DNA of 42,991 bases, taken from the sequence record ON556632.1; one strand, given 5' to 3'. Positions 9,467-10,338 of the stretch are shown here, in pieces. Under the pieces are notes generated by a model that ran no database searches, was not told where the DNA came from, and was given only the letters and a program-made list of their open reading frames with translations. How positions within the stretch are numbered: the stretch's first letter is position 1; every line of letters starts with the position of its first letter. The translations under genes and the position numbers were made by a program. This stretch comes from Escherichia phage hz69.

Positions 9467-9658
9467 ATGAAACACGAATACGACCGCAAACCAGCACGTG
9501 ACATCGTACCGGGCGACATGATTTTCAATGTTAAGACCCGTCGCCCTGTTGCCGTTGATACGGTGTACGTAGAGTCGAACGGTAAACTGGTTATCGAAGA
9601 CGTAACCGGTAACGTTACGGCGTTCGGGCGTAAAGAGTTAGTTCTGGTGGCGAAATGA
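9467..9658 (+). CDS. hypothetical protein (63 aa)
   Basis: ORF track; ATG 9467. Confidence 0.5.
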   Translation: MKHEYDRKPARDIVPGDMIFNVKTRRPVAVDTVYVESNGKLVIEDVTGNVTAFGRKELVLVAK

Positions 9659-10338
9659 TTATCTGGTCATTGTTCGACGGTTCGGGCCTCATGGCCCAAC
9701 CGTGGGCGGAAGCGGGCCATACTTGCTATTGTTTCAACTACGACGGTGCCGACCACGGCGACTACGCGCGATTGGGCGCAAAAGTTGAACACGAGAACAT
9801 CCACTATATAAACGCGTGGATTGACAATAAATTCGACTTCGAGGTTGCGCCGGATATTATTTTTGCGTTCCCTCCGTGCACAGATTTAGCTGTTAGCGGC
9901 GCAGCGCATTTCGAAACGAAGCGGAAGAAGAATCCAACTTTTCAGGTAGAGGCCGTGATTACATGCAAAGTGGCTGCGCGTCTGGCTAAAAAGTACAACG
10001 TACCTTATATGATTGAGAACCCGGTTAGCGTTCTTTCGTCTTTATGGCGCAAGCCTGACTATTCGTTCAATCCGTACGAATACGGCGGCTATTTACCCGA
10101 AGACGACACGCACCCAATGTTCCCCGAATACATAAAACCGCGGGACGCGTACCCTAAGAAGACATGTATTTGGGCGGGTAACGGTTTTGTGATGCCCGTT
10201 AAATCATGTGTCGCCGTGGTTGATGGGTACTCCGACCAACACAATAAATTAGGCGGTAAATCGGTGAGGACAAAAACAATACGCAGCCTTACCCCGCGTG
10301 GTTTCGCAAAAGCAGTTCATGAGGCCAATCATGTCTAA
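9655..10338 (+). CDS. small C5-cytosine-methyltransferase-like protein (227 aa) with non-canonical motifs
   Basis: Motif I SLFDGSG, motif IV IIFAFPPCTDLAVSG (canonical is PCQ), motif VI YMIENPVSV (canonical ENV); no large target-recognition domain. Confidence 0.55.
   Translation: MIIWSLFDGSGLMAQPWAEAGHTCYCFNYDGADHGDYARLGAKVEHENIHYINAWIDNKFDFEVAPDIIFAFPPCTDLAVSGAAHFETKRKKNPTFQVEAVITCKVAARLAKKYNVPYMIENPVSVLSSLWRKPDYSFNPYEYGGYLPEDDTHPMFPEYIKPRDAYPKKTCIWAGNGFVMPVKSCVAVVDGYSDQHNKLGGKSVRTKTIRSLTPRGFAKAVHEANHV

Follow-up and report, generated by a model that had tools for sequence, protein, structure and literature searches.

We analysed a 42,991-nucleotide stretch of DNA from Escherichia phage hz69 (ON556632.1), hereafter called the window, and focused on an open reading frame (ORF) of 227 amino acids plus stop at 9655..10338 on the + strand. 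Judged by its sequence and by analogy with a studied relative, the ORF would encode an active orphan S-adenosylmethionine (AdoMet)-dependent DNA cytosine-C5 methyltransferase (C5-MTase) of the PHROG 757 / BASEL 'Dcm-like' type, a reading to which we assign a probability of about 0.8. A cytosine C5 methylase was one of the alternatives raised by a first-pass annotation of the same DNA. It is supported by the match to PHROG 757, by 57% identity to a phage protein whose counterpart in phage K42 is reported to produce 5-methylcytosine (5mC), and by the replacement of the gene with a PF00145 enzyme at the same site in related phages. There is nothing unusual about the protein, which already has an annotation and belongs to a known phage family that is very common. 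With approximately 227 residues, against approximately 270-470 in solved relatives, the family is also the shortest of the C5-cytosine methyltransferases compared.

The ORF starts with ATG at 9655, ends with a stop codon at 10336-10338 and is the single ATG-started frame; the ORF listing and translation confirmed the earlier description of a 227-residue protein with no large target-recognition domain (TRD). The protein matches PHROG 757 ('DNA methyltransferase') over residues 1-226 with E=6e-86, a score obtained for the window protein alone and not for the K42 or KarlJaspers proteins discussed below. All 12 orthologs from related phages are intact and of the same length (681 nt), with a median pairwise ratio of nonsynonymous to synonymous substitution rates (dN/dS) of 0.10. 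Searches for homologs returned 7,105 clusters at E<=1e-3, the 120 best of which are 210-252 residues long, and 1,208 representatives at 50% identity. The family is uniform in size, with approximately 225-250 residues and no additional domain. Taken together, the intact orthologs of equal length, the low dN/dS, the PHROG match and the number of homologs indicate that the ORF is real and under constraint, and not a chance frame. By tblastn, family matches were found in 1,518 of 50,697 phage records (3%). The carriers include Kagunavirus/Jerseyvirus, Drexlerviridae, Dhillonvirus, rV5-like, JSE/RB49-like and Felix O1-like phages as well as phages of Klebsiella, Campylobacter and Vibrio. In E. coli chromosomes the family is scarce, with partial matches only in 10 of 5,426 genomes.

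The novelty implied by the first-pass annotation does not hold, as RefSeq already lists a protein identical at 226 of 227 residues, YP_010749250.1 of phage SZH-1, as a 'DNA cytosine methyltransferase'. SZH-1, a Kagunavirus, shares the gene order VRR-NUC, 84-aa ORF, 63-aa ORF, methylase and helicase; its methylase differs by one residue (V106A), and its annotation was made by similarity only. Fusions of the short methylase are rare. Among 10 longer homologs scanned, one (P0237, 348 aa) has a C-terminal HNH_2 endonuclease domain, one has a weak, sub-threshold 'Dimerisation' match and the others have nothing further. The BFVD entry A0A6J5SE15 (1397 aa, 'Helicase/UvrB N-terminal') also includes a short methylase part (29% identity, TM 0.67).

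Functional evidence for the family comes from work on phage defence. When the literature was searched for work that had tested the family directly, by methylome or by restriction protection, only a study of retron Ec86 was found (preprint 10.1101/2023.08.16.553469, published as Cell Rep 2024;43:114857 by Wang et al.); methylases are unmentioned in Hamdi 2017. The window protein is 57% identical over its full length (E=5e-96) to bas06_0055 of the BASEL phage KarlJaspers, a 711-bp gene described as a 'Dcm-like C5 cytosine methyltransferase'. The genome of K42, the phage used in the retron study, is 95.4% identical to that of KarlJaspers (10.1101/2023.08.16.553469). Phages escaping Ec86 carried mutations that delete or frameshift the 711-bp dcm gene or sit 9 bp upstream of it, and Dcm is encoded by 34 of the 35 Ec86-sensitive phages. 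Expression of K42 dcm led to growth arrest only with the retron and was non-toxic in MG1655 without it. Liquid chromatography coupled to mass spectrometry (LC-MS) revealed high 5mC in the multicopy single-stranded DNA (msDNA) of the retron with K42 Dcm, and low 5mC with a C82A/E128A/K175A/K176A mutant or the empty vector. These residues were chosen by the authors via DNMT3A and were mutated jointly, not singly (10.1101/2023.08.16.553469).

In the alignment with the KarlJaspers protein, C82, E128, K175 and K176 of K42 Dcm correspond to the identical residues C75, E121, K168 and K169 of the window protein. Since the K42 enzyme yields 5mC in DNA, C5 methyl transfer is established for the family and may be expected of the window ortholog. 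The two proteins belong to the same family and size class (227 versus 236 aa) and share the PPC, ENP and KK residues, and KarlJaspers likewise carries its methylase gene close to a helicase gene. They differ in that KarlJaspers and K42 belong to Drexlerviridae whereas the window belongs to Guernseyvirinae/Kagunavirus, and in 43% of their residues, mostly in loops 31-66 and 182-205.

Conservation was scored across 80 diverse family members (34-60% identity to the query). Sequences resembling motifs I, IV (PPCTD) and VI (ENP), as read in the first-pass annotation, are present in the order expected of a C5-MTase, and the I-to-IV and IV-to-VI spacings are near canonical. The motif I-like sequence SLFDGSG (residues 5-11; 9667..9687, + strand) is the predicted AdoMet-binding loop and follows strand β1, which covers residues 2-6 in the structural model; L6 is conserved in 95%, D8 in 79% and G11 in 78% of the members. 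The family consensus at this place is S-L-F-D-x-T/S-G, with one conserved glycine only (LFDGSG, L6-G11, in the window protein), as against the canonical FxGxG. Motif IV, FPPCTD (residues 72-77; 9868..9885, + strand), contains the putative catalytic residue C75. It is conserved at F72 (91%), P73 (94%), P74 (80%), C75 (99%) and T76 (89%); C75 is kept in 79 of the 80 members and aligns with the PC found in both E. coli Dcm and DNMT2. Motif VI, ENP (residues 121-123; 10015..10023, + strand), is conserved at E121 (100%), N122 (95%) and P123 (100%). It aligns with the ENV of Dcm and has an invariant proline in place of valine at its third position. The near-invariance of PPC(T) and ENP across the 80 members, in which approximately 20 other positions are near-invariant as well, indicates a family signature rather than decay. 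A PPC loop is also found in CmoX enzymes (SPPC) and in a canonical C5-MTase that occupies the same genomic slot in related phages (SPPCQ).

No separate TRD is found between motifs VIII and IX, and the chain continues for approximately 50 residues beyond the last core strand (170-175). A candidate DNA-contacting region is the conserved, family-specific block of residues 131-181 (10045..10197, + strand), which follows the pattern WRKPD...P140...EYGGYLP...HP.FP...RDAY.KKTC.W.G.GF.MP, includes K168/K169 and is modelled mostly with a predicted local distance difference test (pLDDT) score above 90. As the block is conserved and not variable and has no counterpart among the canonical motifs, we infer that it may stand in for a TRD and read one family-wide target. 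A second conserved motif, RSLTPRGFAKAV (residues 210-221; 10282..10317, + strand), starts the last helix (215-225 in the model) and resembles motifs IX/X, with R210 at 98%, P214 at 94%, G216 at 98% and A220 at 93%. R215 is conserved in 71% of the members (57/80) and replaced by Met or Leu in the others. Across both regions, R132, P140, D164, Y166, K168, T170, W173, P181, R210, P214 and G216 are 90-100% conserved.

The structure was modelled with AF2 from 49 homologs, giving a mean pLDDT of 89.8 and a predicted template modelling (pTM) score of 0.88. The model has a class I Rossmann methyltransferase fold with elaborations specific to C5-MTases. In Foldseek searches, the top matches were all DNMT3A/3B, with E values of approximately 4e-7 and TM scores of approximately 0.5. 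In a viral structure library, the nearest neighbours were family members named 'DNA-cytosine methylase'. As modelled, the protein has a minimal version of the C5-MTase fold that has diverged strongly; its architecture is nearest to DNMT3, whose enzymes have the smallest recognition apparatus. Like the DNMT3A/DNMT3B catalytic domain (PDB 6u8p, 4u7t, 8te1 and others), it has a minimal recognition apparatus and no large TRD. It differs in its sequence, with 12-16% identity and a relationship that is not significant at the sequence level, in being approximately 60 residues shorter and in having ENP instead of ENV. A DNMT3-type dimer or tetramer is without evidence here.

The site at which the gene lies provides independent support. 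The methylase occupies an accessory-gene slot (window 9658-10331) between a 63-aa ORF without assigned function (9467..9658, + strand), which forms the conserved left border, and an SNF2-family helicase (10331..11755, + strand; PF00176, E=5e-13), which forms the right border. With the helicase as query we obtained 73 IMG/VR loci and compared the 49 in which helicase identity was at least 91%. The slot holds the short methylase in 11 of these loci, a PF00145 C5-MTase in 14 and an HNH-AP2 endonuclease in 6, and is empty in 18; the two methylases occur together in none. In a more distant clade, a single position immediately downstream of the helicase is again taken by one methylase type or the other (L047 versus L046/L054). 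The canonical slot methylase has 264-324 residues and matches PF00145 with 63 bits. It shares with the short protein the site between the 63-aa ORF and the helicase and a PPC in the catalytic loop (for example L005:9079-10005), and differs in having FxGxGG, PCQ, RxR and GN motifs (SPPCQ ... GYGNAIVP) and EQV at motif VI. Comparison of the two types by hhalign aligned motif IV only (E=0.065), and neither cassette is therefore a homologous replacement of the other. The presence of a classical, non-homologous DNA C5-MTase at the same site argues for the same function in the short protein. The pattern of exchange shows a dispensable, often swapped gene, as expected of an anti-restriction accessory.

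The canonical slot enzymes have features of their own. At the place expected for the TRD they contain a hypervariable, low-complexity stretch rich in R/E/D/S/Q/G with large indels, seen in L005:9079-10005, L007:6241-7161, L017:9064-10005, L033:9034-10005, L046:4593-5618 and others. A second ORF of 220-280 aa in another frame covers most of this gene region. In L008 and L012, the N-terminal approximately 50 residues are frameshifted off the remainder.

A number of observations weigh against the assignment as a C5 DNA methyltransferase, its target or its benefit. Pfam PF00145 scores the window protein at 16.2 bits, compared with a gathering cut-off of 22, over residues 3-101 only, and just 3 of the 80 diverse members reach E<=0.01 with this model. 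No NCBIfam model matched, and a sequence search of the PDB gave no hit. A profile of the 80 members compared with the PDB had DNMT2 as its sole match in the C5-methyltransferase family (E=0.31); an unrelated chain scored slightly better, and none was significant. Similarity to E. coli Dcm is confined to motifs IV-VI (BLASTP E=0.37; hhalign E=0.14). In addition, the acidic residue that ends strand β2, an aspartate in 74 of the 80 members, is N28 here (9736-9738). This residue presumably binds the AdoMet ribose, and the subclade with asparagine would thus carry an altered cofactor-contacting position. The KarlJaspers enzyme also has an asparagine there, so N28 is compatible with activity. The benefit is questioned by the BASEL collection, in which Kagunavirus isolates are reported as highly sensitive to the restriction-modification (RM) systems assayed, so that no broad protective effect is evident.

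In the retron study, CCWGG was assigned from the literature on host Dcm, and its sole backing is that defence was lost once CCTGG in the stem of the msDNA had been changed to AATGG, ACTGG or CATGG (10.1101/2023.08.16.553469). Compared with E. coli Dcm/M.EcoRII (PF00145), the window protein would share the reaction type and the target proposed in the literature, CCWGG (10.1101/2023.08.16.553469), and differs in size (227 versus 472 aa) and in the absence of a homologous TRD and of a Vsr partner. Membership in the Dcm/EcoRII subfamily was rejected, as there is no homologous TRD and sequence and profile similarity occurs only at motifs IV-VI. With homology limited to these motifs, CCWGG specificity cannot be inherited from Dcm, and 'Dcm-like' is a functional nickname and not a family assignment. 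We treat CCWGG as an assumed working hypothesis with roughly even odds.

MG1655 carries McrBC, which restricts DNA containing R-5mC. The tolerance of K42 Dcm in this McrBC-positive strain suggests that the methylated cytosine probably follows a pyrimidine, which fits C-5mC-WGG. On the other side, the host Dcm of MG1655 is evidently not enough to set off Ec86, and msDNA 5mC is low with host Dcm alone; the phage enzyme may therefore differ from it in substrate preference or specificity. The window contains 92 CCWGG sites with an observed/expected ratio (O/E) of 0.8, which indicates that the site is not avoided. We also compared the O/E of 22 motifs between 11 carriers and 38 non-carriers of the short methylase among the close Guernseyvirinae loci. 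CCWGG had an O/E of 0.70 in carriers and 0.69 in non-carriers (p=0.73), and no tested motif was convincingly different; the smallest p among the 22 was 0.024, uncorrected. It is conceivable, if unlikely, that recognition follows an undescribed route, in which the 131-181 block or a DNMT3-like dimer reads the DNA, and that specificity or substrate is unlike that of host Dcm. If so, the substrate could be a hairpin or replicating DNA, or the motif could be one other than CCWGG.

One alternative, the short-recognition methylase of the first-pass annotation, is that the protein is a true C5 DNA methyltransferase with short or relaxed specificity (for example CC or CCW, or hairpin or single-stranded DNA as the favoured substrate) instead of canonical CCWGG, which we regard as possible but unlikely. 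It agrees with the lack of a separate TRD and of any similarity to the Dcm/EcoRII TRD, and with the nearest solved folds, DNMT3A/3B, which read just a dinucleotide via a small loop. CCWGG was moreover assumed in the only functional study, in which the msDNA hairpin was apparently little methylated by the host Dcm of MG1655, given the low 5mC with empty vector (10.1101/2023.08.16.553469). However, changing either cytosine of the msDNA CCTGG abolishes defence, which fits a need for both; the tolerance in McrBC-positive MG1655 argues against frequent R-5mC; and the high conservation of block 131-181 suggests one defined target.

The first-pass annotation also allowed that the protein might be an enzyme of different chemistry. 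We found no support for this option: its 'altered' motifs are the invariant signature of a family in which 5mC is formed by the one member tested. The specific form of it that we weighed, in which another C5 group such as carboxymethyl is installed from carboxy-S-adenosylmethionine (Cx-SAM) as by CmoX, seems very improbable. CmoX (PDB 8yf3) is a close structural neighbour with a PPC loop. It is defined by SPPC and an arginine at the position of M.HhaI N304 (PMC12783734), and the window protein has FPPC (Ser to Phe) and R215, whose possible equivalence to N304 was judged by helix register only. Cx-SAM would be available, being supplied by CmoA of E. coli (PMC12783734), and the K42 study monitored 5mC only. 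Yet the homolog with 57% identity gives 5mC by LC-MS, and R215 is present in just 57 of 80 members and is thus unlikely to define the cofactor. DNMT3A, which uses AdoMet, also has an arginine at the motif X position. PPC occurs as well in the GN-containing canonical C5-MTase of the slot, so it is not diagnostic of CmoX. CmoX itself has 333 aa, needs Cx-SAM and an invariant Arg350, and usually lies beside CmoA and an amide ligase (PMC12783734), whereas the surrounding genes here are those of a DNA polymerase, VRR-NUC and a helicase together with small ORFs. The annotation of the near-identical 44-kb SZH-1 genome lists neither a CmoA or ligase gene nor a TET-like or glycosyltransferase gene.

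The remaining alternatives depart further from protective DNA methylation. The protein might methylate RNA, as Dnmt2 does on tRNA, or have a regulatory or replication role; the DNMT2 profile match (E=0.31), the location of the gene in the replication operon with coupling to the helicase, and the BASEL methylase genes without a link to restriction resistance point in this direction. The DNMT2 match is not significant, however, the homolog methylates DNA and the slot is otherwise filled by a canonical DNA C5-MTase, and we consider this highly unlikely. Least credible is an inactive, truncated remnant with degenerate motifs. Its short length, non-canonical motifs, sub-threshold Pfam score and N28 in place of the usual Asp would suit such a remnant, but the dN/dS of 0.10 with uniform length in 12 orthologs, the thousands of homologs that are full-length and equal in size and the presence of every residue that the active K42 enzyme requires speak against it.

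The window comprises all or nearly all of a Kagunavirus (Guernseyvirinae) genome. Its region 9000-11000 has 99.2% identity to Kagunavirus PDP21P8 and 95-98% to several Escherichia phages. The replication operon on the + strand runs from an Enc34-type ssDNA-binding protein through a family A DNA polymerase, VRR-NUC, an 84-aa ORF, the 63-aa ORF, the methylase and the SNF2 helicase to a terminator. The replication-module context described in the first-pass annotation was thereby borne out, with a PF00176 SNF2 domain downstream and a 109-aa ORF (8842..9171, + strand) orthologous to the SZH-1 protein annotated as VRR-NUC; for this ORF, Pfam returned no match at E<=0.001. The TGA of the 63-aa ORF overlaps the ATG of the methylase (ATGA), and the ATG of the helicase lies 8 nt inside the methylase ORF. 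The operon is closed by a terminator-like GC hairpin with a T-run (11894..11913, + strand) that faces the converging tailspike gene (11918-13732, minus strand). For another GC-rich hairpin, at 9431-9446 between the 84-aa and 63-aa ORFs, the terminator-like score was confined to the minus strand. Between 8.5 and 12 kb, Rfam identified no RNA family, and promoter-like and terminator-like sites occurred at chance frequency. On the strand opposite the methylase we saw no competing feature, just ORFs of 45-51 aa.

Some relatives carry an intein in the Walker A motif of the SNF2 helicase (GSGK|C ... HN|T; L035:8891-10103, with relatives annotated 'intein-containing helicase'), and the window helicase is without it. 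GATC is strongly depleted in the window (1-42991), with 9 sites versus approximately 143 expected (O/E 0.06), and is similarly depleted in 49 related Guernseyvirinae loci (median O/E 0.06-0.07); CTAG in the window has an O/E of 0.3. As a Dam-like gene is absent from the annotated relative, the phage appears to avoid GATC rather than to methylate it.

On the reading as a DNA cytosine-C5 methyltransferase, family and fold suggest the following mechanism. AdoMet would be held by the Rossmann core together with the LFDGSG loop. In the PPC loop, C75 would attack C6 of a flipped-out cytosine while E121 of ENP holds N3/N4 of the base, and the methyl group would be transferred to C5 to give 5mC. In place of a separate TRD, the protein may use the 131-181 block, which includes K168/K169, in combination with the C-terminal RSLTPRGF helix. 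The gene would share a transcript with the replication genes and be coupled in translation both to the 63-aa ORF and to the SNF2 helicase, from which we propose that the enzyme methylates replicating phage DNA.

The role of the methylase is probably anti-restriction, which is the conventional reading and agrees with its exchange as a cassette. As an exchangeable cassette, its likeliest benefit would be to shield phage DNA from cytosine-sensitive restriction, and its likely cost would be the triggering of retron Ec86/Eco1. In Drexlerviridae, the BASEL authors did not find restriction resistance to be tied in any simple way to methylase genes. The high sensitivity that they report for Kagunavirus isolates applies to the RM systems they tested. 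To our knowledge, none of those systems is blocked by Dcm-type methylation.

For the window itself, the gene is a routine accessory methylase and of little significance. The family, by comparison, is very widespread in virulent enterobacterial phages and is a known trigger of retron Ec86/Eco1. A C5-MTase that is both compact and defined could serve as a tool, and knowledge of its target would reveal which restriction systems the enzyme defeats and why the gene is so often gained and lost.

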